A stretch of DNA of 64,000 bases from Paraspadella gotoi (Eukaryota; Animalia; Chaetognatha): contig CM119264.1 of assembly GCA_051294375.1 (NCBI GenBank), positions 11,445,832 to 11,509,831 of the forward strand. The letters run 5' to 3'. The translations under genes and the position numbers were made by a program. The first letter of the stretch is position 1. Each line of letters starts with the position of its first letter. Below the pieces are notes generated by a model. That model did no database searches, had not been told where the DNA came from, and saw only the letters and a program-made list of their open reading frames with translations. Shown here one piece after another: positions 415 to 59,853 of the stretch.

Positions 415-436
415 GAGAGATGGAGTGGAGAGGGAG

Positions 437-528: not shown

Positions 529-534
<6 letters not shown>

Positions 535-17982: not shown

Positions 17983-18013
<31 letters not shown>

Positions 18014-18423: not shown

Positions 18424-18479
<56 letters not shown>

Positions 18480-18576
18480 CTCTCTCATTCCCCTCGACGA
18501 GACGCTATTAAATCGCTCTGGGAAAAATTTCACATTTTTCGTTTCCCTACCCGGACGTGTTGTGAAAGAAAGAAAT

Positions 18577-18658
<82 letters not shown>

Positions 18659-20630: not shown

Positions 20631-20670
<40 letters not shown>

Positions 20671-22501
20671 TTGCGATCGTGTGAGAGAGAGACACGAGAG
20701 CGTGGCGGGAATATTCTGAATGAGCGAAGCGGACGTGGCGAAGAACCCACGTCGATTGGGCGAAGAGGTATGGCGGCGGTGTGGGAGCCGAAGATTGGTA
20801 TCACACGATACAACGGTTTTCTGCTTGGTCTCTTGCTTAGGCTCGTATCACTGAGTGAACAGTCAGTGACTCAGTGCTTCTCAGGGATGGTGACAAACTG
20901 TGTTGCTTATCGGATACTACGTTATGAGATATTTAAGACTTTGATGAGTATGGCAAGCTGTCACTTTCTCCTCTTCACCGTAGTGGACCGTCTGTGTGAT
21001 CCCTGATGTTTTTTTTCGTAATTCCTAGTGCGGACTAGTAGTATGTGGTATACGTACGTGCGCCTCGCATATAGAAAACAAATAAAATATTTTTCTCCCA
21101 TTCCAATGGTAATCTCTCAGTCTCAACACTTCCTCCCCAAAATTCTGACAAAAAAAACGCCCAATCCAGCTAGATTCAGTCTCGACCGATCTCGATTGGC
21201 GTTCCCTCGACTCAATTGTTATCTCGTATTTCCCTTAAGAAGAAGCACTTCCGACGTACGGCATCTCGCTTTCCAAGCGCCCAAAGCTTTCTTTTTCGCC
21301 GGCACACATGTTCGCGCGTTAAATGCTGAGCGCCGCGATTATTTGCAGCGTTCTCCACGCGGCATGCGCGGCGCCCTTTCGCTCCTGTTTTTTTTCATTT
21401 CGCTAATATGAATGTCTTTTACTTTGCGCCGCGAGTACTCGCGAAAGCAACCTCTATAACGTCACTTTTTGGTCGGTTCAGTCGTCTTGTTTGATCTGAT
21501 GCTGACGTCGGAATGTCTGTCTGTCGGTCTGTCCCCCTTACGTTAAAAATGCATTATAATTTGCTAGATTTCATTTGTTTAGATACGAAAAAGCCTCAAA
21601 TTACGTGACTATAGTGACGCCATTCAGGAAACGGCAAAACTAAAAAGGAATCAAAGAATTTAGAAATTTCGATGCAGGTGCATATCATAAACAAACAGGG
21701 AAAGAGAGTATTGTCATATCATATCATGTCATACACATGAAAATAAAAGTCACTGCGCCGCAACACATTGGAATCACCTGTTCTTGTATTTTTGTTTCTG
21801 TTGATTAATTGTCCCACACGTTCAACTTCGCCATAAACCAGCGAACAGTCGATCTAAGCCTTTCGCCCGAGCAGTTCCATATTGCGACACTCCTTGCCTT
21901 TTCTAAAAAAAGCACCCTCTCGTCCTTAATCTTCCACCCCCCCCCCACTCAGGCCGCCTCTCGCTCCGTTTCTGCCGGTTCACCCCGACGTCCCCCGTCG
22001 AATCCCATTTTTATTTTGTTTTGGATTTTCGCTCGATCTTCTAAAGAAATGCTGGCACGAATTTCTGAGAGCTTTGAAACACCCGATTTTTTTCCCTTTT
22101 ACGTTTCCTCTTTCTCGCCCTCTTGAACAGTTGTTTATACTCCAGAGAAAAATAAAATGTAGGCTTCAGTTTTGGGACAAGGCATGCCGGTTTGGTTTGA
22201 CTTACATGTAAGACCCAATTAGGATATTTTAGGGCATCTCATTTCTAACTCACTCGTGAGCTGATTTGAGGTACTTACCCAAAATAGGAAAAACCGACCT
22301 CTCGTAAAATTATAGAACTTTTAAGCGTAAGCATATGCTATAATCGCTCTGTTACAATTTTTTCAAAAATTAGGTCCACTATTTGAAAGGCTGTTAAATA
22401 TCTTCCAAATTAATTCTGTATGATTATATTTTATTTTTTTTTGGTTTGTTTAGAGGTCAGTTCCCAGTCTATATTATAGCTTATATTCTGGGGAGAGAGA
22501 G

Positions 22502-22533
<32 letters not shown>

Positions 22534-22683
22534 AGAAAGAGAAGAGAGAAGAGATCGCTTTCGATCCACGGGATAAAGACACAAAATGGCTCTTCCACTG
22601 GGGAATATGTTAGAAATTGACGCAATAAACTCATTCGGCGAATAATAAACATTTACTTCAAGACTCATCATCATCATCATCTC

Positions 22684-22719
<36 letters not shown>

Positions 22720-25700
22720 TATCATCATCATCGTTTATCACACATATCAACTCATCAATTCACATCATTCTCTCTTTATCTTCATTATCACTCACATCAA
22801 CAACGATCAACCATATAAAGAACTTTCTTGACTGATGCATCATTCTGTACACTCTTCGCTTCAAACTTATCTACGGATGATCGTGATAATCGTGCTTGCA
22901 GCGAAGGCTCATGGTTTTGCGCCGGATGTTCGATGCTTAAACACACGACTTTCTGGCAAGTGATCATCTCCGAGAGCAGAGAGATTTTGATATAGATTGA
23001 GGTATGAGAGTAAGACGAGATCGACGAGAGCAGAAGATGATAGGCATAGAGTAGAGAGGAGTATATGTGTTATGACGTTAAGAAGAGAGAGNNNNNNNNN
23101 NNNNNNNNNNNNNNNNCTCTCTCTCTCTCCCTCAATCTTTCACTCTCTCTCTCAGATTCACTTGCCGAAGTCATTTTTAAGCATCGAACATCCGGCGCAA
23201 AACCTGAGCCTCCAGGCGATTTACGGTTCATCCCGATTTTACAAGAGAATTACGATGATGATCAGGTCAGTACTAATGATTGTCGTTGTTGTTGTTGTTG
23301 TTGATAATGAAGATAAAGATGATGTTTATGATGTTGATGATGATGATGATAACGATGCAAACCGGACGGAAGCGGAAGGCGAAAGGGGCAGAAGAGAGAC
23401 CGAGAGACGGAGCAATCACAGAGGATACTTCCTAGCGGTAGGTCAGACAGCAGAGCCGCGGACGTAGACGTCTATAAGGGGACGGAGATAAATTGTCGCG
23501 TGTGTTTTGATAAAACGCTCAAACAAAACCATATTTAATAGACTGTCCATGATCAATTTTAAGCACATCGATTGGAATGGAGAAAGCTGGTATGATAAAC
23601 TTTTCAGCTTCATAAGACCCAAATTAATCATAAAAAAAGAGCGCCGAAATCGGATAGTATAGAAATTTGTGGAACAGCCGCGAGGGAACACGACGACCGA
23701 CAGCACTTATGATGACCGGCAAAGATGTTACGCACCAGATAGATCGTATCGCGACGAGAAGAGAACGGACGTAGCACACTATGGATACGCGACGTAAAAA
23801 AAATTATTTTTCTTTATTTGGAAGAAAGGACAATTGGCTGCTATCAGAAGGTGGGAGTTGAGCCGGAATGGAACCTGAGAAAAAGTTTTGTATCGAGTAT
23901 AGAAAAAGATAATGCCGTAATAACAGATCTGGTAATATTACAAACGTGGTTCGGGTTGTGCTACTTCGTCTTATAGTGGGAATGAGCGTTCTAAATTGGA
24001 GGTAAAAAAACCCGCAAAATTAATTCTAAAACGATCGACTTTCAACGAAGGGGATAAACGATGTCGTGGGCCGAACCGCGTACGCGCTGTTGAACCAAAT
24101 TCTTAGCGGGCTTTGGGAATTTTGTTAAAAGAATCGGACCGCCTCCCTCCAGGGAGTGAGGAGACTGTGAAGTCGCTTGAGATTGGCTGATCCCGTGAGG
24201 ATGATCGTGCTTCGGCGAGGACCCTTCTCAGCGACGCGACGCCGAAAGGATGGAGAGGAAAACGCGTGATTTCCCCTGGAAACGGCCTCCTTCAACAGAA
24301 AGTTCGCGGTGAAGCACAGTGAGCGGCGTCGGGAGCGGGTGAAACTCCGGCGACGACCCATAGGCGCGACTAGATGCAGCTGGCGTGCAAACGCGTTACA
24401 GATGCCGAGAGATACACTGTCGTCGATCCCAGCGCGACCCATAGAGGGCCACGTCGCGCGGACCAGATGGGGTTCACTCGGCCATGACTGCACGCCTGTG
24501 GCGACCGAGACGTCGTGACTGACTAGGTTATGTAGATACGTATTGAGAAAAAAATAATAGTAATGATCACGAGGCTATCAAGGCGTTCCGTAAGAAATAT
24601 ATGAAAATGTCATTGAGAATAATGATTACGAAACGAACTGATTTGAAAAATGTGTATGTGAGAAACGCACTCGACATAAATTATCTCTGAGAATCCGCGA
24701 ACACGCTCTATGATGCGCGAAAAAAAAAGAGACATCCCAATTCCCGATGAAGGTGAGAGATGCACGGGCAGAGGGTCTGTGGCCTTCCCATTATGTGGTC
24801 CCAAATATAGAGAGAAATCCGTGTCACGTTCTGATGGCGATTCCGCTTTAAATTTTTTCTCTTTTTTCATTCTATTACTGAAGTGTTTTGAATTCTTGGT
24901 AACCGTTTATTTCTACTTTGATATTAAACGCACGCGAGAATCCTATAAATCGACTCACTACTCGAACACGGGGCTATTTTTCCGTGGCGAAATGCCAAGT
25001 AACAGATTATTTGAGATATCTAGGTAACATTTATTGTCACATGCATCATCAATTGAACTAAGTTTAATGAATAATTGGAGACTTTGAAACATCATTCATC
25101 ATCATTCATCAATCATCATCATCGAATCATCATATCTATATAAATTAAAACGACTTAATGTTCCCGCCGTCGTACCTAAACGTTGCATTTAAGGAAAAAA
25201 ACCGATTCCTTTCCAACAATGCTCCAAAGTTCAGTTAACCTTCAACTAAATAACTGATATGATTAACCATTCATGCAAAATCCACTCATCCAATCACTAC
25301 TTACTATGTGATCCAACAACAACAAACAACAACGCTAACACGAAAGGAATCTAGGTTAGATATACATCTCAAATCCGTTTCTAATGGATAAAAGAAGTAC
25401 CTATATGTTGCTGCAGAACTTTTCAGAATAGAAAAATATGTTTCAAATATTTGTCCATTTTTACTTATACGACCTTACTCATTCTGTTGAGAGTCTCTCT
25501 ATCTCTAGAAAAAATCCCGTTGCTTTCTTATCGTTTTACCCCTGGGGTATAAATTTATTGCTTAAATCATTTATAGTTGCCTTATGGAATTAGATTTAAG
25601 TTAACAAGGTCAAAAAATTTGCAGTTTCAGTCTTTTCATAATTTGTTAAACAAAAAAATAAAACAAACTGGGTGAAATTAACAGAAAATATTATTAGGCC

Positions 25701-28700
25701 TATTGAATAAGCTTTTAACATTCTACAAAATATCCAAAAAAGACTTTTTTTGTTGTTAACCACAAATAATTTTTAAAGACAAACACTTTTTAATTGTGTA
25801 TAGCCTCTTTTGGTATGAACTAATGTGCATTGACCTTTGTTAGTAAGACGGACAAGGAGAAGTTTTTGCGTAAACCACGATTTAATTGAATTTTCGGAAA
25901 TGAGCCTTAATAAATTAAATGATGACGTTGATACATTACAACGAAGCAACAAAAACCGTGCAATTCACTTGAAGATCTAATGAGAAGAGCGCCAGATTGG
26001 ACTTATTTTAATTTAGCTCAAAATCTCGACGGTTTGCAGAAGCAGAGAAATTTTTCTGCAATCTAGGTCCATTACTAAAATTTCGTAGGCAACCATAATG
26101 AAATAAAAACCTCCTATTAACTATTGAATATTCTTATCTTAGACTATTAGTATATAAAGCTTTCTTTATGATTTGCTTCCAAAGTAAACGTAGTGAGGAG
26201 GAACGAAATGAGACAGAAGAAAGAGAAGGGAAGATGAAATAAAGAGATGAGCGAAGGCAAAAAAAAAGGAAGAAATGGGGGGAAAAAATAGTGAAAACAA
26301 TGTAAGAGTGAATAAGAGGATAAATGGAAGAAAAAGGGAGGAAAAAGAAAGGGAAAGAATGAAGAAATAGAAGAAAATGGAGTGAAAAAGTGCATGAGTG
26401 GCAAAAAAGAAGGGCCGAAAAAATGGAGGACAGGAGGTAACGACACGCTTGAATAGTAAGGAGGAAAGAGAAGAGGAAAATATAAAGTAAGAGAAGAAAA
26501 GAGGTGAAGAAAAATAATCAGGAAAAGCTATGAAGGGAAAAAAGTGTATCAATAATGTGGCATCTTGCCTAAACTCTTTTGTGTAAGTAAAAGACATGAG
26601 ATTCTTATAAGGAATCGATCTTTAAAAATTTTTTTGATTGTTTTTTTTTTTTTTCTGTACCATAAAAAGTTCAACATACTCATAGTTCTAAAATCTATGG
26701 AAGTTAATGAGATTAGATTCGACAATCATGTGAAGAAATCAAGGTCTTTACGTTTTTTAACTCATAGAAATTTACATGGGAAGTTCAATGATAGAAAGAG
26801 ATAACTTGAGTCTACCGTTTTTTAAAATGAAGAAATTTCGTACTAACAATGAGTCAAGAAATTATGTAATTATTGAGTTCGATTTCGTTGTCTAAACGAC
26901 TGTTGTACGCGAACCTTAAAACCGTAAAATACAAGATAGTTAAAACTAGTCTCCGCTACGGAAAATAGACGCCACAATGAGAATCAGAAGATTGGATCAA
27001 AAAAGGCTTTCCCCTCTTTCCCTCGACGGCCTTTTGCGCTCGTCCCAGATGGTCTTTCCCGTCGCAAGCGCAGATCTTCTTAGATTGTCGAAGAGCCAGC
27101 GGAGTCTGCGATGATGCCGCAAAGCGAGCCGCGTCCGGCGCCGCGCTTCCCGGCCTTGAGACTGAGACGCCATGCCGCGACCCAGATCTTCGGGCGGATA
27201 CTTTAATCACGAGAGAGCCCGGCCGACGCGTCCCAGGACACTTGAGGACGTTGTCCACGATCTGAAGGCAGACGCGGACCGTCGTCGTCAGCCGTGACAT
27301 ACGAAGTCAGCCAAACGTGACGGTCGGGTCGGTCGGAGCGCCGTGGCAGGTGCCTAGAGTTTAAAAGAAAAAATGATGGTAATAAAGAAAAGTTATTTAT
27401 TTCTGCGCCATTCTAACCAAACTCTCTCATTACTGTGGGATAAAATGGCGCGCCAGTCGGAACCCACAGCCATCGGACAAGTCGCCACACTCAATTGAAC
27501 GTGAAAGTCCTGCGGCCCAGGCGTTAGGAGCCCGTCGAATGTGCCTTCATCACGCACGTGCCATTCATCTCCGATTTGGATATGCAAACGCCTGCCCCAA
27601 CGACGACTCTGATATACCAAAAGAAACCCCAAAAAGTTCCAAAATCGTATTGGGTGACCAATTTTACCCAAGGCCAGGATAGAGAATACCCCGCCTTCAG
27701 TATGAAAAAGTGATTACTTTTATTGATTTAAAAATAGTTGGAGTTAGGAAAATACTGCAAAACTATTGTATATGTAAAATTTTATATTGATCAGTAAGAT
27801 TATGGACCCTTGGACAATGAGTGGATGAAAAGTTGGCCCTGTAAAATGGGGGTTCATTTTCCAACCTACCTGGTATTAAAAAAGTCTAAATGTTTAGAGA
27901 AGAAAAAAAAGGAATAAACAAAAGTGTTTATTAAAATATTTGAACAATATTATATCTCAGGGGAAAGCGAGATTAAAAATATTGAGGAAAAAAGTTTGAG
28001 ACCTTGGACGTATGGGTCAATAAGAAAGAGATGAGATCAGAGAAAAGGAGAGAATTTATTAACATGTAGTAAATCTATGTATGCGCCAAATCGTAGTGAC
28101 CTGAGTTTAAATGAGGTATGTCGCTCTAATCTTTTCTTTGGCTTATAAGACCATAAAAGATACTTCATATTTGATATATCCAATAAGTATCCAGAGGAAA
28201 GCCCGCCTTGAGAAAAAAGATGTGACGAAAGAAATTGCGAGAATTAATGTTCTGACGTAGAGATCAGTCAATAAACAGTTTACTCGTCAGCTATGATTTG
28301 GTTAAAAAAAAAGAGTCNNNNNNNNNNNNNNNNNNNNNNNNNTCTTGGAGTTATTGCGTTGCGTGGCGGGAATATTCTATGCAGCGTCGGCGAACCCCGT
28401 CTTGGCCGATAGGCGGCGTTGGACGTCGACGGTTTTTTGGCGGTTGCGGTCGACATGGCATCGGCCGGTGCTTCGGTGGCTGAAAACTTTTTCTTTTTGT
28501 CTCGTTATGTTTTTTAAGACTTTTGATTTTGTCTACTTTTCTCTTTTCCTTCTCAACCGTTTGACCGTCTGTTGTGATCCCTGAGATTTTTTTTTTCTAA
28601 TTCTAATCCTCTGTTTTTTTTTCTCGCCCCAAAAAAACAATAAAATATTTTCTCCCATTCCCAATTGGTAATCTCTCAGTCTCACACTTCCTCCCCAAAA

Positions 28701-35872: not shown

Positions 35873-38800
35873 ATGGGCGCTTCCAAGTCGCTTCCTCGCC
35901 CGCCCGAAGAGGGCTTGCCGTTTTTTTCCATGACGTTTTCCGGGAAGGGAAGTAAGTTCATAAATTACATGTCGTTCATCTGTTATAATGCTAAACATTG
36001 TTAAATATCATGTCAGTCCGCGATACTCTTATGCTCCACTACTGTCGCTCGAACGAGCTTGGCATGATCTTTGAGGCGCTGAAGGAGACTTGGCCACCAG
36101 GCATCAAGCATCACCAACCAAACGTGAGATTAATTTTGGAGGGAAGTGTGAAAGGAAAGCTGGAGGGGTGTAGTTATTTTTTATTTCAATACTGAACTGA
36201 ATAATCGCTTAGAAATCTAATACGTTTCCGTTCATTCTTCAGATCTTAAATTACAAAAGAAGTAATAGTGCAAATTTTTTGTAAATAAGAAAATACTGTA
36301 AAAACTCAAACTCAAACGTCAAATGCATATATCGATAATTTATGAAAAAAGAACTATGATAATTTTTTTTGCTTTGCAGTTGCAGTACGGTTACAGTATC
36401 AAACTCCAAGGCTCACCTTTTGAAGAAAATATCGGTGGTACATCTGAAACTGTTTGGGCAAGGAACTTTCTGGCCGATGCGTTTTTGAGGCTGGGTCGAA
36501 CAGGTACGTACATAGTTTGAAAGTTTGAGAGTTTGAGAGAGAGAGAGAGAGAGAGAGAGACTTAGCTGGAACTTCATTATCCAAGGCTGGGTCCCTCTGA
36601 TGTCCTCCGACCTGCGCCGCATGGGCGACACTTCTACCGTCTTCGTGGAGCACAAACCGGAATTGGCCAAGATCTTCGAGGGCGCGGAGAGAGTGGCCGT
36701 CGTGGGTCTTCATGAATCCACCAAATTGCAGATCCTCAATCTGGATGGCGAGACGGTGATTAGTCAGAGTTGACGAAAGAAAAGCCTTTCGTAAAAACGA
36801 ATTTGACGTTGAATTCTTTTCATTCTTTTCATTGATGTAAAATGCTTTCGGTTATTCGCGAAAGGTGAAACTTCTCTTCGACGTCGTCCGGAAATCCTGG
36901 CACAAGTCCGTTTCCATCGAAGACAAGAAAACGCAGCAAAAAAATAATTTCGAGTCGATCGAGTATCAGGTGATCATCAAGACTGCCGATATTGTCGTCG
37001 TTGTCATTGACATCTATTTCATCACTAATGCAGCATATTTTATGCCGCTTCTAACCAAAACTCAAAAATACATTTTTTGTCGATCTGTCAAGAGTTTTGG
37101 TCCGCCTATTATCTATTCGGGAGCTTCAAAAAAAAAAAGCAAACAATATAGAATCAGTCTTGCATTAATTCTTGACACTCAGTTGTTTTCACTTAATTTA
37201 ATTCTTGTTTTCTTTGAAAAAAAAATTTACATTTTTTTGTCGATCTGTCAAATCTGTTGTTCTGTCTATTATCCATATGGGGACCTTCAAAAATATAAGC
37301 AAAGAACATAGAATAATTTTTGCATTGATCCATGTCAGTTGTCACTCATCTGTTTGAACTTTTTTTTTTTTAATTCTCGTTTTCTCTGAAGGAAATCACG
37401 TTCGATGGGGGACCATGGGGTTTGGTGCCGGACGAACGCGAGGCTTCTAATGGACGACTGGCAGTCATGAGAATCATCGAAGCGTTGGCCTCTCTGGTTC
37501 GTAAACATCGGAAAAATGTTTTTCGTTTCAATTTCAAAGTCTTGATATCCAACTTTTAAAGGGATGGCGTTTGATCCTCAACTGCAATATCCGACCAACG
37601 ACGGACACGCTCTTCTTTGTCAAAGATCCCTTCATGACGACGAGAGAGTTCGGCGCCGGCGCCGCCATGTTTGGAATGGGTTTCCACAAGAGGAATGAGC
37701 TCAGGATATTAGTTATGAACTAAGTAGGGATTGATTTAAAAGATTTCTTGCAGGTGTAGTTTTGATCTGTCTACAGACATGGTTTCTACATTTTGATGAC
37801 ATTTTATAATAAGTATTAAAAAATGATTAATTAGAAAGCCGCATGCCGTATTGCATGATATTCAAAATCAGCTCGCCTTTCTACATATTTAACACATTAT
37901 TTCTTGTTGCAACATTTATGAGATGTTCATTTTTTTTTCTCCAGGTCGAACGCCAGACGATGAAAATTGGCAGCATCTGGTGGTTGATGCCATTTCCAAC
38001 GCTATCAAATCCAATTGGCATCAAGGATTGGCCTGTTCTGAACAAAAGGCAACAAAAATTTTATATTGCCTAATTCCAACTTAAGCAATCATACTAGTAA
38101 ATTTGATACACAATCATTGCGCAGCAGGAGAGGTCTAATTTGTATGCAATGCATACTATGCAATATGCATACTATGCATACTTTTACTCGCAGGAGGACT
38201 TTTACTGCTTTGAAATAAAAGGCACTCCTTGGTGGGCTGACGGTACCTCGGCCGTCTACGCTAGACTTCTGTTCGCCAAGGTCCTCGAGTCTCTGATGAA
38301 AATCGGTTGGAGAGTCAATTCGACGGTGGATTGTTCTCGGAAGGACAACGACAAGAACGCCTGCTTCTTCCAGAGATGCCACCCGGTCGAAGCCAAAGTC
38401 ATAGTCGTAAGAAATATTTTAAATAAATTATAATCTTTTATTAATTATTTATTTTAATGACAATTTAGTTATAATTTAGCTTAAATAATTTTTTTTAATC
38501 TCAGAATATTTAAATAATACATATAAAATTATATTTAAACATGGAAAATCACATGGACGGATATTCCACATAGAAAGCTGCTTTTCACCCTCCAGCTGAG
38601 CTTCAACGAGTCGGACAAGATCCGCGCCATAAATTGCCCTCAAGACGTCGTCGAGGCCGTCCACCAGGAGATCGAAGGATTTTGGGAAATCAGTCGCGTC
38701 CAACCCTTCGGCGCCGCCCACGAGTGGAAGTTAAAGGGGAATCCGTGGGACTTGGGTCATTGGCACAACAAAGGTTAAAGAAAAACAAAGACTTTGTTAT

Positions 38801-39543
38801 TTCACTCGAGACCCGGTAACTCATTGAGTGAAAGCTCATTGTCACTATGTCCTGGGTTTCAATCCCCATTCGTGAATCGTGAGGACGGCCGTGAACCTTT
38901 TTGGGGGCGGAGCGACCCCCCAAGAATGGTTCCATACCCAGGATATTGCTGGTGAGTGGACTAAGATTAAGTTATAATAGTTCTATGTATTTTCTACGCA
39001 CCTACGAAATAAAGTGAAAATTCGTTAAAAGAGCTGAAACAAGGAAGGTCAGGGACCAAGTAATCCATCTTCAACCAATTCTTTACAGCCCTGGCCATCC
39101 ACTTGTTGAACTTGCTGCACCGCAAAGGGTACGCCCTCCTGTGTTCAGCCGACACCTCCGCCAAGTTCGCTCGCAACCAATACGGCGTCGATTATCCACT
39201 CGACGTTCACTCGTGGTTCTTCGTCACCAAGGAAGAGCGAGCGAGGCTAACGACGCCAGACGGAGGCGCCGCCAACGCGGTGGCGCCGGTCAGAAAATGC
39301 AAATCGACTTCGGAATTCAAAATCCCCGACTCGTAGAAAAAAAGTAGAAATTCCTTTTTTTTTTTCTTTTTGCAGAATCCGCATCTTACCATAGAGGCGC
39401 CGCCCGCTTACACGTATCAGCCGCCATCGCCCAACGCTTCGCCGGCCTCCTCACGCCCCTCGACTCCCACAGCCGAGTCGGACTCAGCCCCGCCCCCTGA
39501 TCCATACAGGGTGCCGCAGTCTCTCTACCCTTCGCTCCAATAA
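35873..39543 (+). CDS. Uncharacterised four-repeat protein, paralog 1 (~567 aa): MGASKS myristoylation motif, four ~120-aa repeats, C-terminal PPAY and LYPSL
   Basis: Exons 35873-35951, 36017-36123, 36380-36503, 36586-36755, 36865-36969, 37392-37496, 37562-37712, 37945-38048, 38194-38406, 38596-38773, 39089-39288, 39376-39543 (1704 nt). Exon-for-exon homology with paralog 2. Repeat consensus S/G-F/L-H/N-E-xDxIR...W...K-L-x-G-x-P-W...L...G-W/Y...F-F. Two donors are non-canonical (after 37712 and 38048). Confidence 0.85.
38808..38965 (+). mobile_element. tRNA-derived SINE-like insertion in intron 10 of paralog 1
   Basis: A-box-like gacccggtaactcattgagtgaaagc, B-box-like gggtttcaatccc, and a strong hairpin ttgggggcggagcgacccccaa. 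The equivalent paralog-2 intron is much shorter and lacks it. Confidence 0.4.
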
Positions 39544-40338
39544 GAGAAGAACTAAAATAATGTATTAATAGCGTTGTAGAACCTTGGGCAAAGTGACCGT
39601 GGGGAATGACCGACTCTGAGAAAGAGGAGAGAGGAAGGGTTTAGAGAGAGAGACCGGTCGTAAGTCGCCTCAGCATTATGATTATATGTATTTTATCCTT
39701 TACAATTCTTTAACTTAAAAGGCTTTGGAGTTTGGCTTTGGATTCTACTGGTACTTTATCTCCTATTACTGTAGTACATAATTTCAAATATTTTTCATGA
39801 AATTGTTCCAAAAATAAAAAGCTATTTTGCCCAGGACTTTGGACAGGCTATGCGTATTGCCTAAGTTGGGTTAAGACCATCCATCTTATTGAATGAATTG
39901 AAGTCTTAAATGATCAAAACAATTTCAATCAAGACCCCTCTTTCTTTCCACTTAATTTGCCTTCGCTCACTTAAAAAAGATTAGCCGAGATTCATAGTCC
40001 GCGGATAAAAGTACATAGCTCTTGAGAGAGAGAGAGAGAGACATTAACATTTTTGTCGTCATCGCCCCTTTAAGTTTAAGTTTTCGTCGTTTAGGCTTTA
40101 GCAGTCGGTTGGAATATAACTACGTACTAACTTGAAAGTCAAAAAGAAATAAAAGTTTTGAAATAAAATTACTAAAAAAAAAATATCGGTGTCAAAATTT
40201 TTATTTCTAAAATTTACAATAATAATAAGCGGACCAAAAGTCCAAATCGAATTCATCTACGTACTAATAGATTTCGAACAAGTATAATTTATGAGCAGAC
40301 TCTAGTCTAGAGCCGAAGTCGAATCCGCTCACCGCGAA

Positions 40339-42777
40339 ATGGCTGCAGGTCACTCTTGGTCGACCGTTCTGTATTTCTGGTTTCATTTCTTCGTCTTCCT
40401 TCCACTTTTTCATTTCTTCGATTTTTGCCACCGTGTCTCCTCAACATTCAACTCGGCCGTGGACGACGACCTCATTGACGTTCGAAGGATCCTCTGGTGT
40501 CACAACCTCAGAGTCGGACTTGGCGACGCCTTCGAGAACGTCGTCCACGTTCACGCTCGTTACGAGCGCGCGCGTGAATTCGCGTGGAAAGATCCCGACG
40601 TCCACTTGTTCCATCTTTCTGAAAAGGGCGCCATTTTTATTCGGACCACGAAAGGTGAGGAAGATTTAAAAAGGAAGTCTGAATAATTTGACTGAACAGT
40701 GCTGTTTCGTCCAAATTATTCAGTGTTCAGTAGAGTGGAGCACTTTTTTGAGTGAAGAAACAAGGATATTTAGACGTGAGATCGTATGCTTAACGGGTAC
40801 AAAAATTTTTTTGCTTATATTGTTTGGGGAACACGAACAGTATCATTAATTCTAATATTTTTATAGTAATATCCTTATAAAATAATAAATTTTCAAAATG
40901 GATAATTTTTATATTGGTTGTACGTACTAATTTCATAAGTTATTAAAAATTCAAATCTCTTCTGCGTCAAAAACGAAAAAAGAGGTCAAAATTCTTTACT
41001 TTTTTACTCTCTATAGTAGAAACTATAATATGAAGATAGCAGCTGTATCCTAAAAATATCATTAAACATATTTTACAAAAGTTTTTCAGTTTTTTCCTGC
41101 GAATCCTGTTCTTGTTCTTAAAATTGAAAAAGTATGATTTTAAAATTTTATTATTTTTTAAGGACTTTACTAAAGTATAAAGAAAATTTAATTCATGGTA
41201 CTGTTATGCAAATTTTTTTGAAAAAGGTTTTAATTCTTTTTTATTACATATACAAGCTATATATTACAAAGGCAACAAAAAAAACAGCCGCCACAGCTCC
41301 ATCGCTCAATCATTTCATCGTTCGATCGTTCAGTGTTTAGATCAGTTTTAATCTTTTATTACTCTCAAGGTGTCGACATCTACAGCTCCAGCGTGAGTCC
41401 CTTTTGTTTTATTTCACTCGTGGAACACGCCGAGGAGTTCGGACTCGTACCTCTAGAGGTCTTTCGCCGAATCGCGTCCGACGAAACCGAAAAACTGTCA
41501 GCCGCCAAAGATCAAAATGGAGCACCAGGGAAAAATAGGTTGTCTTTGGAAAACAAAAAGGTGATCCTCATAGGCTCAGTGGCCCGCAGCGGCAGCACCC
41601 TAATCCTCCAGCACTTCGAGGACCTCCGCGGTTGTCAGGCGATAAGCGAACCTCCGGCATTCATCAATCTCGCCGCTATGACAGTCTCCGATGCTTCCAG
41701 GACGAACCTCTTCCGACACGTGCTCTTTTTCGTTGCAAAGGCCCTCTATCGGCGGCCGGACGTCGAAATTGTCGCCATCAAACTACCCGTGCCGACGCCG
41801 TGGATCTTGGCGGACGCGATAAGAGAGAGGAAGGCGTTCCCGTTCGACGCACGTTTCCTTTTTACTTACAGAAATCCCGTGCCGATGATGAATTCCTGGT
41901 TAAGACTAGAGACTGAAATCCATTCGGATCCGCAGGTTCGCACCCTCTGGCGTCCTGTTTGTCTATCTGTCTGTCTCTTACTTGATCATTCTCCACCAGG
42001 GATACGCAAAGCAGCTTCCGATCATCGGCCGTTTCTTTCCTGACTCCTACGGTTTCCGCATTGGCGTCGCGATGCCAAGTCTCGCCATTTCCGGTTTGAG
42101 ACGCGTCGTGGGGGACGCTTACTGGCGCTACCGATTCGCGTGGTGGACGAGCGAATTGATGTTGGAACCAGACAAGGAATTCTTAACGACGACTTCCGAT
42201 GGTCGAAAGGTGGTAGTGCATTGTTTCTTTAGGTCGCCTGTTTTTTTTGTCTTGAACAATAGAAAAAGAACTGCGCAGAAAGCTTTTAATTTAGGTTAAG
42301 AAAAAAGAAGATATTAGTTACATCAATACCCGTTTCCAGGCGTCGGTGGGATCGAACTCTTTGACGGGTCACTTCTTTGCTTTCTACATGGCACCTATGT
42401 TGACGATGATGGAACTGCTTAAGAGCGATGAGTTTCAGAATGTGATTCTGCCTATACGCTACGAGGTCCTGACGACGATGCCAGAGATGTGGACGACGAA
42501 GATGTTGCCCTTTTGCGGGATCGCTGCTGCGGCGGCGTCTGCGGCGGGGTCTGCGGCGGCGTCCTCGGCGATACAGAGGGATTCTCAACGCGAAAGCAAG
42601 TACAGCCAAATACGGATGTCTTCCCATGCGACGAAGTTGCTGCCCGAAGATATTGAGAAGCTCGACGAAGTCGTCAGGGCTGCCGGGTTCGCCCAAGGGT
42701 TGAGAGCCTTGGAACGTGATTTCTTGAGAAGTGGTGGCTCGCCTTTGGCGCGCAAAAAAGTCGCGTTTGAAATATAG
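40339..42777 (+). CDS. P-loop sulfotransferase-like protein (~509 aa) with hydrophobic N-terminal anchor
   Basis: Exons 40339-40654, 41370-41935, 42000-42209, 42340-42777 (1530 nt, in frame). 5'-PSB-like VILIGSVARSGSTLI, AISEP, 3'-PB-like FLFTYRNPVPMMNSW, and IRYEVL. Confidence 0.8.
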
Positions 42778-42997
42778 TCGAAACTTTTTCGAGAGACTAG
42801 CTAATTTTTTATACGTAGGGTTTCGTATAATTTACAACTATCCGAAATATCTAGTCTCAAAAGATTGAGTAAGATATATTGTTGTTACAACCATAAATAC
42901 ATCTTTTTAATGAAACATGATTTTTTGTCACTGCACCGGTGCAGAGATGCTCGTTACTTCCATGTATTTCTAACGTAGGTCGCAATAATACGTAATA

Positions 42998-43229
42998 GTA
43001 TGGCAACAGCAGGGATGCCTGAGATGCCCATAAGGATCTCACTGTTGGCTTGAGGGGCTGCCGACCCTCAGTGACGACTCCAGTCACTGGCGCGTTTACC
43101 CTAGGTCGGTCTCGCTTTGCCAGTACAGGGAAGTCGTTAGGACTGTGGACGGATCACAACGCTGAGCCAATTGGATTTACTGAATGATGGTGGATGTGAG
43201 GCGATGTGAATCGTTGTCGCAAAACTGAA
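42998..43229. repeat. Structured ~230-270 bp interspersed repeat, copy A
   Basis: Homologous to 61835-62110 (gtatggcaacagc..gcctg.gatgcc..atctcac..tggcttg.gggg..cgaccct.agtgacg..tggcgcg.ttaccctagg..cgctttgcc..aggactgt..gaggcg.tgtgaat). A 5' fragment is at ~2485-2515. Confidence 0.75.
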
Positions 43230-43504
43230 ATTATGGTCTAAACTAAAGATTAATACTTTCTAATAAGGTGCTTCTATTAAAAGTAACCTAAAAATGTATA
43301 AGTATAAAATGAATGAATTATATTTATTATATAGATACATAATTATACATACATATATACATTACATATATAACCAGTAAAGCGTAGCAAAATATTAAAA
43401 TTAAATAGAATGAAAATTCGAATAGTAGATCACGAACATTTTTAATTAAAAAAAGTTAATTTTTATTTTTCAATTTTCGCATACGCCTATATTTATAAAA
43501 AGTA

Positions 43505-44133
43505 CTCACCATAGAAAATGTTAAAATTGTAAAATGTTTTTTTCTTATTTTTAAAAGCAGATTAGAATTCCTGACGAAAAGTTAATTAAAGGAAATATAA
43601 CTCTTTTTAAAAAAATATTTTAATTAAGTGGGTCAAAATCCTAAAAAAATATTATTATTAACATATATCTATTAGAAAACTAGGACAGATAGTAATCTAA
43701 CCTTGTGTTGTATAGATGCTCCCTCTATTTCCAGAAGACAACACTGACTTCCCCTTCCCAAATTGAATTATTAGATAAATAAAACATTTTTAAGAAAGAA
43801 AGCAATATATATTTGATTAAATAATAAGATTAAATACTAAATCCTTCATAAAAAAATCTTAAAAGCATAAGGAATCGAGCCTACTTTTGATGATAACCAA
43901 ATATTGATGCGATGATAACCAAATATTGATGCGATGATAACCAATAATTGATGCGATGATAATAAAATAACTGATGTGATGATAATCAAATGATTGATGC
44001 GATGATAGTCATTCATTGATGTGATGATAATCATTCATTGATATGATGATAATCATTCATTGATGCGATGATAGTCATTCATTGACGCGATGAGTCATTC
44101 ATCGTAAATAAAACAACAAATGCGTGTATGAAT

Positions 44134-44183
<50 letters not shown>

Positions 44184-44886
44184 TGAGAGAGGCTGGTCAG
44201 TTTTTCACTCTCGTTTATATAAAGTATAATCAGAAGCTGGACCGCCCTGCAGAGCTGAACTCGTTTTTCGACGTATCTGAGTAGGGACGAACTCTTTTCC
44301 TTTCCTTTGAATGAAATTTTAGATTGTTCTTTTTTTTAAGAAGAAACCAGACCGAGGTCAAATTTCATATTTGCATATTTAACTAATTTATAAATATTTA
44401 TCCCAACTCAAATAATTATTATTTTAAAAAAGAATAAAAATGATTAAATATATACACTAAAAAAAATTTACAATTTTAAAATTGTAAAAATTATTAGAAT
44501 AACAAAAAAAGTAATGTTTAATTTGACAATATCTCTCTTCTCAACTCCTATTTTAGATATAATTTGCCAATAGTGGGCCGACCGGTCCAAAGTTACAGTA
44601 ATAAACAAAAACAAAAAAAATTTTTTTGTTAGAAAGTTATATATGTAATTAAATTAATCCGCGCAATTGCCGGACATATAGCAGCTATATGTACAGCAGC
44701 AAGCTGATGTACATGTGACATTGCCTGCATTATAAGTTATTTTCCTTTTTTCTAAAAGGAATTCATGAAAATCTCGGATGTAAATTTGGGATTTTTGTAT
44801 AGAGAAAAAAAAATAAATGGCGATAATAAAAGTTTTTAGAAGGAAAAAAATAATAAGAATTTTTCAAAAAACGAACGGTCGTACAT

Positions 44887-44924
<38 letters not shown>

Positions 44925-45116
44925 TGAAAAAAAAGTGACTAAAAATTTTTTTTTTGTAAAAAAAAAAAAGAGAGAAGAGAGAGAGAGATAGAGAGAGCCG
45001 GAACTCGTTTACTCGTCGCGCAGTGACGGAGGTAAAAAAAAGGTGACTAAAAATTATTTTTGTACAAAAAAAAGAGATAGAAAGAGAGAAAGAGAGAGAG
45101 AGACAGATAGAGAGAA

Positions 45117-45159
<43 letters not shown>

Positions 45160-45220
45160 AACACGTGTTTACTCGTTTACAAGTGAATAAATTTTTTTTT
45201 GTAAAAAAAAAAAAGAGAGA

Positions 45221-45269
<49 letters not shown>

Positions 45270-45270
45270 C

Positions 45271-45311
<41 letters not shown>

Positions 45312-45656
45312 TTTTTCCGCCAACGATACGCAATATTAGGTCACTCTTGTTTATATCGGCGTGATCTCGGTCAAGTTGATTTTTTTTATACACGTAACGC
45401 GTTATTAGGTCATGTTCCTCGACATTGTTTACTCGTTGCCCTGCAACGGCCACGAAATCCAGGTGAAGTTAGTTATTCTTCACATTTTCTCAAAAAATCC
45501 ACGAAAATCTCAGATGTAAATTTGGGATTTTGTATTGAGAAAGAAGCGCGGAATAAATGGCGATAATAAAAGTTTTTAGAAGGAAAGAAATAATAAGAAT
45601 TTTTCAAAAAACGGTGGTAAAACAAAGTGAATAATTTTTTTTTGTAAAAAAAAAAA

Positions 45657-45710
<54 letters not shown>

Positions 45711-46757
45711 GGAGGGAGACGGAGGGAGAGAGAGAGAGAGCCTGAACTCGTTTTTTTTAAACGATTCAGAAAAGGCAGCGCCTGATCAAATATATATGTT
45801 TTTAGAAAGAAAAAAATAATCAGAATTTTTCAAAAAACGAACGATCACGCAAGAGATCGCACACAAAGAGAGACAGAGAGAAACTGAACTCGTTTTTAAA
45901 CGATTCAGAAAAGGCAGCGCCTAAAAAATAATATATATAATTAAAAAATAAATAAAAGAAAGGCAAAAAATGTTACAATGGTTTACAATTGGAAACTTTT
46001 CCAATTTTTTCCAATCGCAGCTTGTAAAAGATTTTATTTTTATTTGTATTAAAATTAAGATATAGCTTCTCATTAAAAAAATCCTTTGAGTTCCCATTTT
46101 TATTAAAAATTTAAAAAAAATTTTTTGAATTTCATCTTCAATATTATATACTGCAATATGTAAATTAGCTTAAAGCATTTCTATATACTAATTTGGATAT
46201 TATAATGAGTACTATAATCTCATTTGCATATTGCAGTAAATCATAATGAAGTGGAAATTCAAACAAAAATATTAAATCCAAATGTAATATGAAAATATCA
46301 CAGCTATTTCAAGATGAAAAGCCATATCTAAATTTTTAACTTACTATGATCGCACACTTTTGTAAAACTTTATCATAATTCATAATAATTTTTATTTTAA
46401 AAAAAACGGTAAGTCACAGCCAAACCTATAAAAGCGTAGTAGTTTTTATATATGAAAACAGCGTGACCACGACGACGACGACGACGACGTCACAAAGAAG
46501 CAACCCTAAAACATTATAGAGCCTGACCCGGCTTCGCCGGTCAAGGCTCGATAAAAATATAAAAATAGAAAATAGTGAAACAAGTAATTTGCAAATTTTC
46601 ATAATAAAATTTTAGTATAAAAAATATAGTTTTTTGGCTAACTAAATAAAATAATTTTTTATTAAGACTTATATTTTCGTATATCAACTTTTTATAAGGA
46701 ATTCGAATCTGCTTTCAAAACTAAGAAAAAAATTATTTTAAAATTTTCTTTGGTGAG
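43505..46757. mobile_element. ~3.25 kb non-autonomous DNA element with ~110 bp imperfect terminal inverted repeats
   Basis: 43505 CTCACCATAGAAAATG...TTTTAAAAGCAGATTAGAATTCCTGACGAAAAGTT versus the reverse complement of 46645-46757, CTCACCAAAGAAAATT...TTTTGAAAGCAGATTCGAATTCCTTATAAAAAGTT. The interior holds a minisatellite, (GA)n and internal duplications; no transposase ORF. Confidence 0.6.
43886..44103. repeat. 21-22 bp minisatellite (TTGATGCGATGATAACCAAATA grading into TTGATGCGATGATAGTCATTCA), about 10 units
   Basis: Tandem units read directly from the sequence. Confidence 0.9.
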
Positions 46758-47398
46758 CCTTAATATACATTATATATACATTTTAAAATGTGTACATCTT
46801 TAATGATAACTTTTAACCGGACCCAATGCAACTGTTATACTAATAAAATGTTTTCACTAATTATTTGGACAAACGTTGAACCTTCTCTTTTCTTGTTTTG
46901 ACAACAAACAAAGAGACGAACTACAGCAGGATCCGCAGCTGCTGCGCGCTTCTCCCGGGAAAAGCCTGGTAACGCAACCAACCCGACGCATCTATATTTA
47001 ATATGAAATCAATAGTCCTTTGAAATGCTTTGCCTAAACAAATAGAGAGAAAATTGATTGTCTGGTTAAGTCCGTTTTGAAAATTCGATGAAGCAGTCCG
47101 ATTTCAGGATCTGGAACTCCCTGTGTGGCAACAGATTCCTGGCACGAAGATTCTGTGCTTTGCACGAACAAAAAAAAAACTTGTTTGATTTCGAGAAAAA
47201 GTGAGTTAACAAACCTGCTCCGGTGATCATGCAAAAAAACAAATTCGCTTTATAGCATCTGTAAATTACATAGCACCCAAATAAATACTTCTTTAAAAAA
47301 TTTAAACGCACGCTACTTACAAATAGAATTTATAAATGATTCACCTCTTAGAATCAGGCTAAAATCATTACAATTAACGACTTAATTATTTTATAAAA

Positions 47399-50300
47399 AT
47401 GGGGAACGATTCTTCAACTCCGATTCCTCACCCGCCATCGGATGGACTTCCGTTTTTTTCAATATCTTTTACGGGAACAAATTGTAAGTGTTTAATAATG
47501 TGAATTCTTTTTTTTTTTACTCTTTTTTAAAGTTATCTAAAAAAAGAGGAAGAGAAAGTATAATACTAATTGCATCATTATAGTCAAATTAAGCTATTTA
47601 TTTAATTTTTTTCTTCTTTCAAGTATGAAAAAACTACATCGATGAATCCATAAAAGAAATATCAGTTTCGAATTTAAAAATATTTTACCATATTCTAGTC
47701 CGCGATTCTCTCTATCTTCATTATTGTCGGCAATCGGAAATCGTGATTATTTTGGATTGCATCAGGAAAAATTATCCACCTGGAATCGATTCTCATGAAC
47801 CTAAGGTATTTACTTTTTTCTTTATTATTTAATTTACTTTAAAAAAAAAACCCTCTAAATGACAAAATTAATAGTTATTAAATCAATACTTAATAATAAA
47901 AAAGTAACGTCGCCGTCTAGGTCGAATACGGGTACAAAATCAAACTGAACTGGGCGCCTTTCGAACACGTCTTCGCGGGCGGAACTTCGGAATCCATTTG
48001 GGCGAGAAGATTTTTGGCCGAAATTTTCTTGAGATTAGGACGGAGGGGTGAGCACCCTCGGATTCCTGCGCTACGTTTAAACGTATTCAGCATTATTTTC
48101 AAATACAGGATGGGTCCCGCTAGTGTCTTCGGACTTGCGCCGAATCGGCGACACTGCCACCGTCTTTTTCCAATACAAACCAGAAATGGCAAAGGTTTTC
48201 GAAGACTCGCGGTCCGTCGCCGTCGTCGGCCTCCACGAATCCACGGAACTTCAGCTCATCAACGTCGACTCTGGATTAGTAAGAGCTTGCTTGTGCGGCC
48301 AGGATCTTGTGGAAAAGATCAAATTACGATTTGACGTGTTTGCTTGCTTGTGCGGCCAGGATCTTGTGGAGGAGATCTAATTACGATTTTACGGTTGTTT
48401 TTTTTTTAGGTTCAGCTTTTGTTTGATGTCGTGACTAAATCCTGGCACAAAAAAGTAACAATGAAGGACAAGATAACTGACAAGAAAAACAACTTCGATC
48501 CTATAACCATTCAGGTGTGGAACTTATTATTTTCTTGTTTGTCCAATTTCTGTTAACTGATAGATAATAGTTCGCCAACTCAGAGAAAATTTATTATTTG
48601 CTATTAGAGAAAATTACAAAGAAAATATATTGTGGCGCAAAACCATTTGATCTCAGGTGATGGATCTTGAAGGAAGTCCTTGGGGATATACCACTAACGA
48701 GGGTGAGGCCGTCCACGGCCGACTTGTCGTTCTCAGAATCATTGAAACAATGGCCACTCAGGTTGGTGGATGTACTTTTAAACACTTCAAGAAGAAAATT
48801 TTCCGAGTTTAGATAAGTAATTATAATATAATTATAAAAAATCTCATGACTTGGCCATCTGCTTACGAACAATAACTAAAGCAGATGAAGGGATTATATT
48901 CTTTTAACTTTCGCTCAGGGTTGGCGCCTCATCCTCAACTGCAACATTCGGCCGACGACGGATTCATTGTTCTTCGTGCAGGATCCTTGGGCAACGGCGA
49001 CGGATCATTGCGTTGGGGCCAACATGTTCGGCATGGGTCTTCACAAGATGGACGAATTCAGAATCGTCGGTAAAGAAATACAATTCAGTAAAATTAGTCA
49101 GTTGAGGTTCTGTTTGGTTTCCTCAATAATCCTCATAGAAGTTCATCTTAACTGTTCATTCATCTTTTAATAATAATATGTATGTTTTTGTTAATCCATT
49201 TTTTAGATCAGTTATTTTATTGAATGGTTTCAGGTCGTTTGCCCAATGACAACACTTGGCAACATTTGGTGGTAAATGCTTTGTCCAATGTCATCAAAAC
49301 ATATTGGCCTTGCGGGCTCAAACGATCAGAACAAGAGGTAAACTAATACAAACACCAATGCCTTTTTTTTACTATTAATTTAAAAAAAGGGAATATTTTT
49401 GAACTTCAGGAGAGCTTTTATGTTTTGGAAATGCATGGAACGCCGTGGTGGGCGGAGGGAACTGACGCCGTTCAAGCTCGTCTCATGTTTGCAAAGGTAC
49501 GTACAATAATTTTTTTTTTCATTTAATCGTATTTATTAATGCTTTTGTATTACGTACAGGTTCTTGAAGCTCTAATGTCTCTTGGTTGGATGGTTAAGTC
49601 CACCATCGATTGCTCACGAAAAGACAACGATAAAAACTCCTGCTTCTTTGAGAAATGCAATCCCATAAACGCGAGTGTGGTGGTAGTAAGTAACTATTTT
49701 TGGCATTTTTCATCTCACGAGAAGAACATGAAAAAGGACCTCATGATTTAGTTGAGCTTCAACGAGTCGGACAAGATTCGCGCCATCAACTGCCCCAAGG
49801 AACTGGTGGATAACATCGACAAGTCGATCAGAGAGCAATGGGTCGTTCAGCGTCGCCGACAGTACGGCGCCTCGGAAGAATGGAAGCTTGAAGGGTGTCC
49901 TTGGGACTGGGGACATTGGCAAAACAAAGGTTGGAGGCTTTTTTCGGCGAGAGATTTTCTGCGTAATATTTACTGATTGTTAAAATAAAAATCCTTTTTA
50001 AGCTCTTGCCGTCAACCTACTGTACATGCTGCACCAAAGCGGATACGTTATGCTGTGTTCGGTCGACACCTCGGCTAAGTACTATCACCAACACCACGGA
50101 CCTGACTACCCACTGGATGTGCACTCGTGGTACCTCATCTCGAAAGGGGCTCATTCTGCCCTTAAATCTCCTGGTGGAGCCGGCACAATGGCCACCGTTC
50201 CAGGTTTTCTACAGGTACAAAATATTCAAATTAAATATGTTTGGTTGTTTGTTAACGCATATATAACTTAAATTGACTATTCCTCTATTAATTTTTTACC

Positions 50301-50710
50301 TATTTAAAAATTTTACCTTTTTTGTGCTTACTTTGTTGCCTGAATATATATTTTTTTCGTTATAATTTTGAATTAGTTGATGGGATGAAGATGGCATCAA
50401 ACTGGTTATTAACTATTTACGGGCATATGTACACATATATACTAATAAAATAATAAATAAAATATCATTTTAACTACGTTTCTAGATTATATCAACTTAA
50501 GTATGTCTTTGTCCAATGTCAATGTCCAAACAGCCACCACCATATTATTCCGAAGCGCCCCCGCCCTACGCCTACTTGGCGCCGTCGGCGCACACAACGC
50601 CGGTCAGTTCGCGCCCAGCAACCCCAGAAAAAGAGGGGGAACCTTCCGCCCCGCCCTTGGAACCCTACGGCGTCCCTCAATGGGGTTCATCACTTTATCC
50701 CAAACTTTGA
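47399..50710 (+). CDS. Uncharacterised four-repeat protein, paralog 2 (~577 aa): MGNDSS myristoylation motif; C-terminal PPPY x2, PSAP and LYPKL
   Basis: Exons 47399-47483, 47699-47805, 47921-48047, 48109-48278, 48410-48514, 48657-48761, 48919-49069, 49234-49337, 49410-49496, 49560-49685, 49752-49929, 50003-50214, 50534-50710 (1734 nt, all GT-AG, in frame). Confidence 0.9.
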
Positions 50711-58171: not shown

Positions 58172-59853
58172 CGACGGAGAAGAGGAAGAAGAGAAGGGAG
58201 AGAGAGTGAGGAGAAGAAAGGAGAGAGAGAGAGAGAGTCATCGACGGCATCATCGATACATCCGACGGAAAGCGAAACACGAACCTCTGGCTCACCTTGT
58301 TACGTCGAGTTCATTTTAATTTTCGATGTTGTAGAAAAGAAAAACCGGCTGTCGATAACCATTATAACCAATTAGACGGAAGAAGAGGGGAAATTTTTTC
58401 TGCAACGGGTTTTCTTATTTTTTTTACCTCCCCGACTGAGTTTGCTAAGTCGACCCGATCGGGCTTCTCTGCTGCGTTTGTACAGTCATAAAGTTCACCC
58501 ACCGGATAATTGATTTTAAAGTGGGGGAAAAAAATTTATTACACAAAGAAATTTTCTGGTTTGTTAATATCGACTCATTTACTAATTAATATATCACATC
58601 CAAGAATTCGATGCTTAAATTAAAATTTAGAGTCAAAATTGATCTTTGAAGCAAGCGTGGGCGTTTTGAAAACGTTTTGTATCGCGTATAAAGATCGTTT
58701 GTTCAAGTTGAGCTTTTAGTTGTAGACTTTAAACTCAAGGTCAATTATGTTCCTATGAAGCTAAAAATTACATGTCATTTGCAAAGAATTCAATTAATCG
58801 CAACCGTTTCATAAAACTCCATCGATAAACGATTATTATTTATAATTTTCATTAAACTTGCTATGTTCAAAATTTCTAATATATTTCGCGTCATTTTTTT
58901 GTTTTTTTTTAAGTACATGGAAGCAAGCCAAAGGTTCGCACTTTGAAATGCCCTTCAATAACAATATTTTTTATTTCTTCTTTTCTGGAGTTTTCAGAAA
59001 GCGAATAACGTTTAATATTCGATCTTGTGTCGTCTTTTTCAAAGCACGCAATGGAGTGTTGAAAATCCCTGCTAAATTTTGTTTCTCAAGCGAAAATCTT
59101 CTGAGGCCTTGGCTTATTCTTAAGCGTAATCTCGTTCCACGATTCTTATTTATTTATTTTCCAGATAGAGAGAGANNNNNNNNNNGAGAGAGAGATTAAA
59201 AGGAAGCAGTGTTAAATCTCACTGGTGAGCTTAGGGAGTTCTTGCATCATAAAATAATTCAAATTTTTCTCCAGAAAGCAAAATTGGCATTTAAACATAT
59301 TGCGCTCTAATGCTCTAATAACATTTAATTACAACAATGTTTTCATCACATTTTCATCAAATTTTCATAACATTTTTTCCTAAATTACATTTATGGCTGG
59401 AAAAGTCTCTTCAAAATATAATTTTCGTGTTTGGATCGATTTGTAATTCGTAAATAACGATTATATTATATTAAGCTATTTCCCAAAAAGTTCGCCTTTT
59501 ATATCATTAAAATTTAATAAGTACTAGTATAGTTTATTACATTAAATTTTTATCTATTTCTATCGCTTTTCGATTAGATTTTCTAATTTTTAGATTTCGC
59601 TCTTTCGTGATGACCGGACAATAAATCAAGTCATTTCGGTTTTTTTTTTTAATCCACAAAGAGGCTTTGAATAAAAACATATCGGCTTTCTGCCCCACAG
59701 TACAGTTCCAGTTTATTCCATTTCCGAATGATTCTTTGTTCGTATTCAAGCCCTGATTATGTACCTTTACTTTTATAAGTTTATGCACCATTGAGATAAA
59801 AATTACAAGCATTTTCTTAAAAAACGGTCGATTTAACCAACGATTTGCGCGCA

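Follow-up and report, generated by a model that had tools for sequence, protein, structure and literature searches.

A window of 64,000 nucleotides from the chaetognath Paraspadella gotoi (assembly GCA_051294375.1, contig CM119264.1, positions 11,445,832 to 11,509,831 of the forward strand) carries two paralogous genes, here G1 and G2, whose products belong to a real, conserved and previously undescribed family that has no Pfam model. Both proteins begin with an N-myristoylation consensus, continue through four repeats and end in a proline-rich tail with short motifs that a preliminary description read as a Gag-like budding design. The features, in coordinates of the window, are as follows.

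35873..39543 (+): paralogue G1, 567 amino acids, 12 exons, open frame; run X9 joins across introns 2-10, with introns 1 and 11 as predictions.
G1 exons (+): 35873-35951, 36017-36123, 36380-36503, 36586-36755, 36865-36969, 37392-37496, 37562-37712, 37945-38048, 38194-38406, 38596-38773, 39089-39288, 39376-39543.
35873..35890 (+): G1 MGASKS, N-myristoylation consensus from the sequence and family conservation (37/43); modification predicted.
35915..39231 (+): G1 four-repeat region, from repeat hidden Markov models (HMMs); fold from models of homologues.
37713..37944 (+): G1 intron 7, ending TT..AG (GT..CA for a cut placed one base earlier); X9 joint, record lengths sum exactly.
39400..39411 (+): G1 PPAY (PPxY, predicted Nedd4-family WW ligand), amino acid 521, from the sequence.
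39481..39495 (+): G1 DSAPP, amino acid 548, aligned with PSAPP of G2; no match to P(S/T)AP.
39520..39543 (+): G1 C-terminal SLYPSLQ-stop (LYPxL, predicted ALIX ligand; YxxL also fits).
47399..50710 (+): paralogue G2, 577 amino acids, 13 exons, open frame, 12/12 introns GT-AG, 58% identical to G1.
G2 exons (+): 47399-47483, 47699-47805, 47921-48047, 48109-48278, 48410-48514, 48657-48761, 48919-49069, 49234-49337, 49410-49496, 49560-49685, 49752-49929, 50003-50214, 50534-50710.
47399..47416 (+): G2 MGNDSS, N-myristoylation consensus from the sequence; MGNDNS in three full-length relatives.
47447..50145 (+): G2 four repeats, amino acids 17-130, 141-255, 266-380 and 385-496, from repeat HMMs and sequence.
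50534..50569 (+): G2 PPPY(Y) and PPPY, amino acids 520 and 528, from the sequence.
50642..50656 (+): G2 PSAPP (predicted TSG101 UEV ligand), amino acid 556; PPPY there instead in relatives P0001-P0003.
50690..50710 (+): G2 C-terminal SLYPKL-stop, from the sequence.

Both genes are intron-rich, lie on the plus strand and were rebuilt from splice sites. Their translations contain no internal stop, and each start ATG is the first in-frame ATG downstream of an in-frame stop. Ten introns match between G1 and G2 in position and phase, another lies in the matching section of the tail, and one intron of G2 has no counterpart in G1. Reads were used for G1 alone, from run X9, which is RNA by software guess (no run is on record with RNA). 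One X9 contig of 1235 nt spans introns 2-9, and another joint bridges intron 10, its shorter side being just 28 letters; none of the splice joints seen in X9 was found in three DNA runs. Exon 1 has no X9 coverage and intron 11 shows no joint, yet one contig breaks off at 39288, the donor predicted for it. The splicing of G2 is predicted from its GT-AG introns and from the three full-length relatives P0001-P0003 (contigs of 2.0-2.7 kb), which support both ends of the model: they start with MGNDNS and finish with LYPSLH, LYPRL and LYPQL. The donor of G1 intron 7 has the same letters, with no variant, in DNA runs X1 and X5. Its counterpart in G2 is a GT-AG intron, and the X9 sample may come from a genome that differs from this one. 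A pseudogene or frameshift at intron 7 was ruled out, as X9 shows the joint, the frame is kept and homology with G2 requires an intron there. The following intron of G1 (intron 8, 38049-38193) is GC-AG and is joined in X9. The two proteins are identical at 290 of 479 core residues (61%) and at 36 of 73 aligned tail residues (49%). Because many codons for the same residue differ in their letters (154 of 272 core codons and 25 of 36 tail codons), G1 and G2 represent an old duplication with both copies held in frame.

The four repeats of each protein measure 112-115 amino acids, begin at residue 15-17 and share a mutual identity of 14-23%. HMMs built per repeat position from eight homologues score the other G1 and G2 repeats at 22-53 bits, against at most 9.7 bits in 200 shuffles. 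In the four-repeat model of P0001 (predicted template-modelling score 0.81), residues 19-498 form four alpha/beta repeats with two long helices each, and the tail is predicted to be disordered, with a pLDDT (predicted local distance difference test) below 50; a two-repeat fungal member was modelled with a pLDDT of 90.8. The best structural match of both models is Q4D6Q6 of T. cruzi (PDB 6XYB/6XYD). The first model aligns 97 of 107 residues with it at Z 12.4 and a root-mean-square deviation (rmsd) of 2.0, and the second aligns 99 of 106 at Z 11.4 and rmsd 3.0, the top of 48,161 chains (Foldseek E 3.5e-4). Q4D6Q6 is described in PMC10899635 as a propeller-like homotetramer of the same topology and as kinetoplastid-specific. 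Each repeat is thus predicted to take a Q4D6Q6-type alpha/beta fold. Four of them in one chain likely close into one ring or propeller; the template-modelling score of 0.81 and the repeat numbers found, one (as a tetramer), two, four and eight, fit such an arrangement. A further use of the fold is seen in chains FQ, FR and FT of trypanosome mitoribosome assembly factors (PDB 6SGA/9HNY), which match the repeat at Z 8.2-9.1.

Searches at the level of sequence or domain gave no named family. P0001 and a 35-sequence profile had no match in PDB sequences. Foldseek with the four-repeat model returned nothing at E<=0.001 in PDB or in the viral BFVD, and no Gag or capsid lead. Pfam at gathering score gave no match for 13 exon or open-reading-frame pieces or for 11 full-length homologues, arrestin and BTB included, and among 35 two-repeat members it gave only DUF1737 and DUF4177 below threshold together with scattered matches. 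The ESM Atlas yielded nothing but fungal clusters without names (282-297 amino acids, at 0.82-0.88), which serve as leads only.

The termini of the two proteins contain every motif that the preliminary description had listed. The starts MGASKS and MGNDSS, the four repeats and the proline-rich tails are present in both paralogues, as are the two PPPY, PSAPP and SLYPKL-stop of G2; in G1, PPAY, DSAPP and SLYPSLQ-stop are there as well, but DSAPP does not match P(S/T)AP. Its argument that the short motifs persist while the tails around them have diverged is weak evidence: the tails are plainly homologous, and pairwise persistence therefore proves little. Taken singly, PPxY in the G1 tail and PSAP in the G2 tail arise in shuffled tails at frequencies of 0.19 and 0.08, which is within chance, and the terminal LYPxL at 0.006 in G1 and 0.018 in G2, which is beyond it. 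The first 20 residues hold 0-2 basic residues and no cysteine; a predicted myristate in this setting would be a weak, reversible anchor. The terminal YP[SKRQ]L also matches the YxxΦ adaptin signal. A peroxisomal targeting reading (PTS1) of the terminal PKL was rejected, the endings within the clade being SLQ, SLH, PRL, PQL and PKL. The pairing of PPxY, P(S/T)AP and LYPxL with Nedd4-family ligases, TSG101 and ALIX, respectively, is documented in PMC6874086, PMC2958808 and PMC8402826.

Conservation across the family provides the firmer ground. A search seeded with P0001 returned 652 clusters at 50% identity (E<=0.001), and the set analysed comprises the best 150 of these 652 clusters, 10 other relatives and G1 and G2, 162 proteins in all. 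Named members come from Oculina, Rhopilema, Dendronephthya, Hydractinia, Anisakis, Lacrimia, Perkinsus and several fungi, so that corals, jellyfish, a hydroid, a nematode and a diplonemid are among them. Four repeats were detected in 81 of the 162, two in 48, three in 20, one in 10, none in two and eight in one, the last being P0080 of Perkinsus chesapeaki (1038 amino acids). Counting an N-terminus as complete when the first repeat begins at residue 12-24, 43 four-repeat representatives qualify; MGxxxS/T is present in 37 (shuffle mean 1.0, maximum 6) and Gly2 in 39, and a wider N-terminus set has the consensus in 37 of 56. A complete last repeat is found in 132 of the 150 representatives, and 81 of these have a tail of at least 15 residues. 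PPxY occurs in 34 of the 81 tails (shuffle mean 4.7, maximum 11), compared with 2 for the reversed control YxPP (4.7 expected), and the extended form PPxY(x)[DE] in 24, against 0.7 expected. P(S/T)AP occurs in 17 (mean 1.9, maximum 7), and its reversal PA[ST]P in none (1.8 expected). In a quick tree without bootstrap the tail motifs are spread over several separate clades, with [LI]YPx(1-3)L in four.

Two-repeat proteins that have a leader and a short tail place the motif elsewhere: 11 of 21 carry PPxY in the leader at the N-terminus (shuffle mean 1.05), three of them named fungal proteins. Because of these, the sequences indicate that PPxY stays tied to the domain whatever its position. In the clade of G1 and G2 (five members), PPxY and the terminal LYPxL are each present in 5/5, and P0001-P0003 have a second PPPY at the place of the G2 PSAPP. 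Of the three motifs, PPxY is thus the one that is conserved; LYPxL belongs to certain clades, and PSAP is variably present. A clade with P0014 and P0015 has neither the myristoylation consensus nor a PY tail and ends in a hydrophobic helix, likely a tail anchor; membrane attachment thus appears to recur by two means, MGxxxS/T and this C-terminal helix.

With moderate confidence, we favor a reading of G1 and G2 as lipid-anchored sorting adaptors that bring a Nedd4-family ligase to whatever partner the core binds, and in their own clade likely ALIX as well, because MGxxxS/T, PPxY and P(S/T)AP are enriched family-wide beyond shuffles. In such an adaptor the predicted myristate would keep the protein at the plasma or endosomal membrane, on its cytosolic side, and the four repeats would close into one propeller, equivalent to the Q4D6Q6 tetramer in a single chain, with an outer face that would bind the partner as the C-terminal rings of KCTD proteins do. 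[quoted passage not shown] The protein would work in the mode of ARRDC1 or LITAF, or as a KCTD in which a PY tail replaces BTB-Cullin3.

Comparison with known systems places this design beside several cellular ones. ARRDC1 and the other alpha-arrestins, like G1 and G2, join a membrane-targeted folded core to a C-terminal tail with PPxY, and PSAP is found in both ARRDC1 and G2; ARRDC1 uses PPxY for Nedd4-family ligases and PSAP for TSG101, and buds in ARRDC1-mediated microvesicles by a Gag-like route (PMC9105457, PMC11270581). Unlike alpha-arrestins, G1 and G2 have four alpha/beta repeats in place of the arrestin beta-sandwich, a predicted myristate anchor and an added terminal LYPxL, with PSAP optional. 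LITAF/SIMPLE recruits ESCRT at endosomes with PSAP and PPSY (PMC3656027), but its motifs are N-terminal, its membrane-inserted domain is cysteine-rich and no domain in common with G1 and G2 was found. A membrane anchor with a PPxY/PSAP tail does not alone imply a virus-like role, because ARRDC1 and LITAF already use such a cellular design. Q4D6Q6 shares the topology of the repeat, and its tetramer matches the four repeats; it differs as a single-domain homotetramer with 14-16% identity and no match at the level of sequence; the likeness may reflect homology or analogy. GFRP and the KCTD C-terminal or H1 domains, of related fold at modest scores, are ring-shaped partner-binding modules that in KCTDs are coupled to an E3 ligase (PMC7618933); both are described as closed pentamers that bind partners (PMC7618933, PMC6851490). 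These pentamers are made of separate chains, and KCTDs carry BTB with Cullin3, whereas G1 and G2 have no BTB. Retroviral Gag shares the myristoylation consensus, PPxY, PSAP and LYPxL, but G1 and G2 lack its helical capsid-like domain, zinc knuckle and basic N-terminal stretch. Syntenin reaches ALIX via LYPX(n)L (PMC11270581), a motif type also present in G1 and G2, which have no PDZ match. Because the defining domain of each is missing, G1 and G2 are not members of Gag, the alpha-arrestins or KCTD. A literature search, which left most subscription papers and the proteomics supplements (these could list members) outside its range, found no paper on the family or on a myristoylation consensus with tandem Q4D6Q6-like repeats and a PY tail.

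A number of observations weigh against the adaptor reading, or against its extension to the whole family. Complete four-repeat members with MGxxxS/T lack any of the motifs in 22 of 34 cases, 12 of these with a tail of at most 8 residues (some short tails may be truncated gene calls), so recruiting a ligase cannot be what the family as a whole does. Conservation among homologues, which the preliminary description proposed to check, holds for MGxxxS/T, PPxY and P(S/T)AP, which stand far above shuffles, but LYPx(1-3)L is rare (3 of 81 tails, shuffle mean 0.22; [LI]YPxL in 4, mean 0.11) and all three late-domain classes coincide in 1 of 81. Even in the clade of G1 and G2, PSAP is present in 2 of 5 members. 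Residue shuffling breaks proline runs and slightly flatters motifs with PP (control PPxF 6 versus 2.25). Many short members are fragments, and the three-repeat class (20 of 162) was left out of the closer analysis. The structure models are those of the homologues P0001 and P0136 and not of G1 and G2 themselves, and closure into one ring is presumed. The fold named in the preliminary description, GFRP/KCTD-H1/DUF4177, came close, with Q4D6Q6 the strong match, but GFRP (Z 5.8-6.6) and the C-terminal domains of KCTD1/8/12/16 (Z 5.1-6.2) fall in the range of a common arrangement, below the confident one; the GFRP/KCTD matches at Z 5.3-6.6 have rmsd 2.6-4.4 with 72-90 residues aligned. For its DUF4177 component (PF13783) the best score is 19.4 bits against a cut-off of 25, in 1 of 35 two-repeat members, with E 0.07-0.09 in 2 of 11 full-length homologues.

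A possible, though clearly less probable, account is that the tail motifs steer only the protein's own turnover or sorting. The ring would then have a separate job, as a ligand sensor, a GFRP-like enzyme regulator or a weak enzyme, and PPxY, LYPxL and YxxL would route it to lysosomes or vesicles. As an adaptin signal, the YP[SKRQ]L at the C-terminus would serve such a route, and the 22 motif-less members keep the myristoylation consensus and the core all the same. GFRP is a metabolite-dependent regulator (PMC7618933), and Q586B2, the T. brucei homologue of Q4D6Q6, is located in vesicles and is moderately active as a tautomerase (PMC10899635). Against this, the multiple PPxY, the added PSAP and LYPxL and the N-terminal PPxY of two-repeat members look like adaptor tails, and the count of invariant columns across 68 four-repeat sequences, zero, suggests no shared catalytic residue. 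We consider it unlikely that the motifs are by-products of a low-complexity tail rich in proline and tyrosine, or ligands of other partners (ALG-2, SH3, clathrin adaptors) with no link to Nedd4 or ESCRT. The single-tail frequencies of PPxY in G1 and PSAP in G2, and the simple homology of the two tails, fit that account; the family enrichment, with reversed motifs at or below expectation, the excess of PPxY(x)[DE] and the independent position of PPxY in two-repeat members argue against it.

The Gag-like scaffold of the preliminary description, which would multimerize under the membrane and drive its own ESCRT-dependent release in vesicles, seems improbable to us and is not borne out. G2 does combine the myristoylation consensus with all three late-domain classes, the tail of a soft-coral relative, P0144, has all three as well, and the eight-repeat P0080 shows that one chain can tether two rings. 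Synthetic proteins are released once they bind membrane, recruit ESCRT and self-assemble, and a Gag-like model depends on such higher-order assembly (PMC11270581, PMC1885833). The homologous fold, however, forms closed rings of four or five members, and a chain with four repeats would likely use up these interfaces within itself; there is no sign of a lattice. The P0001 model leaves no room for a helical capsid (CA) domain, the CCHC zinc knuckle has no match in G1, G2 or P0001-P0003, and the first 20 residues are as poor in basic residues and cysteine as noted above. Triple-motif tails are just 1 in 81, PSAP is absent from G1 and from two of its three close relatives, most complete members have no motif, and both genes are intron-rich old cellular genes and not a retroelement remnant. 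We give equally little credence to a variant in which a GFRP/KCTD-like propeller would have become a myristoylated scaffold with three late-domain classes, stacking or tiling on membranes and budding itself with cargo, a Gag analogue without retroelement ancestry.

If the adaptor reading is correct, the family would be another structural type of Nedd4/ESCRT adaptor, in addition to alpha-arrestins and LITAF, and would bring to animals and fungi a fold that is described as specific to kinetoplastids. It would also suggest two separate couplings of GFRP/KCTD-type rings to ubiquitin ligases, as BTB-Cullin3 and as PY-Nedd4. Members with all three motifs would then suggest themselves as scaffolds that load vesicles.

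The stretch between the two genes (39544-47398) is unrelated to them. An element of 88 bases (39586-39673), 43 bases past the G1 stop and probably within its 3' untranslated region, is a high-copy repeat with many loose ends, with a depth bin of about 64,000 in X1 against about 90 alongside; elsewhere in the window it has only two partial matches of 36 bases. One or two genes occupy 40339-42777 (+), with no link to G1 or G2 seen; a piece at 41516-41914 matches Sulfotransfer_3 weakly (E 0.27-0.99) and contains RSGST, which we take to be the 3'-phosphoadenosine 5'-phosphosulfate loop of a sulfotransferase. Next to these lie a short degenerate tandem array of units of about 21 bases (43890-44100) and several (AG)n tracts whose flanks recur (44130-45740). 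Rfam gave no match over the window. Runs of N, six in number and 1211 bases in total, fall at 17515-28342 and 59176-59185, none within G1 or G2. Further upstream, exon pieces at 407-886 (+) match the immunoglobulin I-set (E 0.003), and 6506-6898 (+) matches Peptidase_M24 (E 4e-9).

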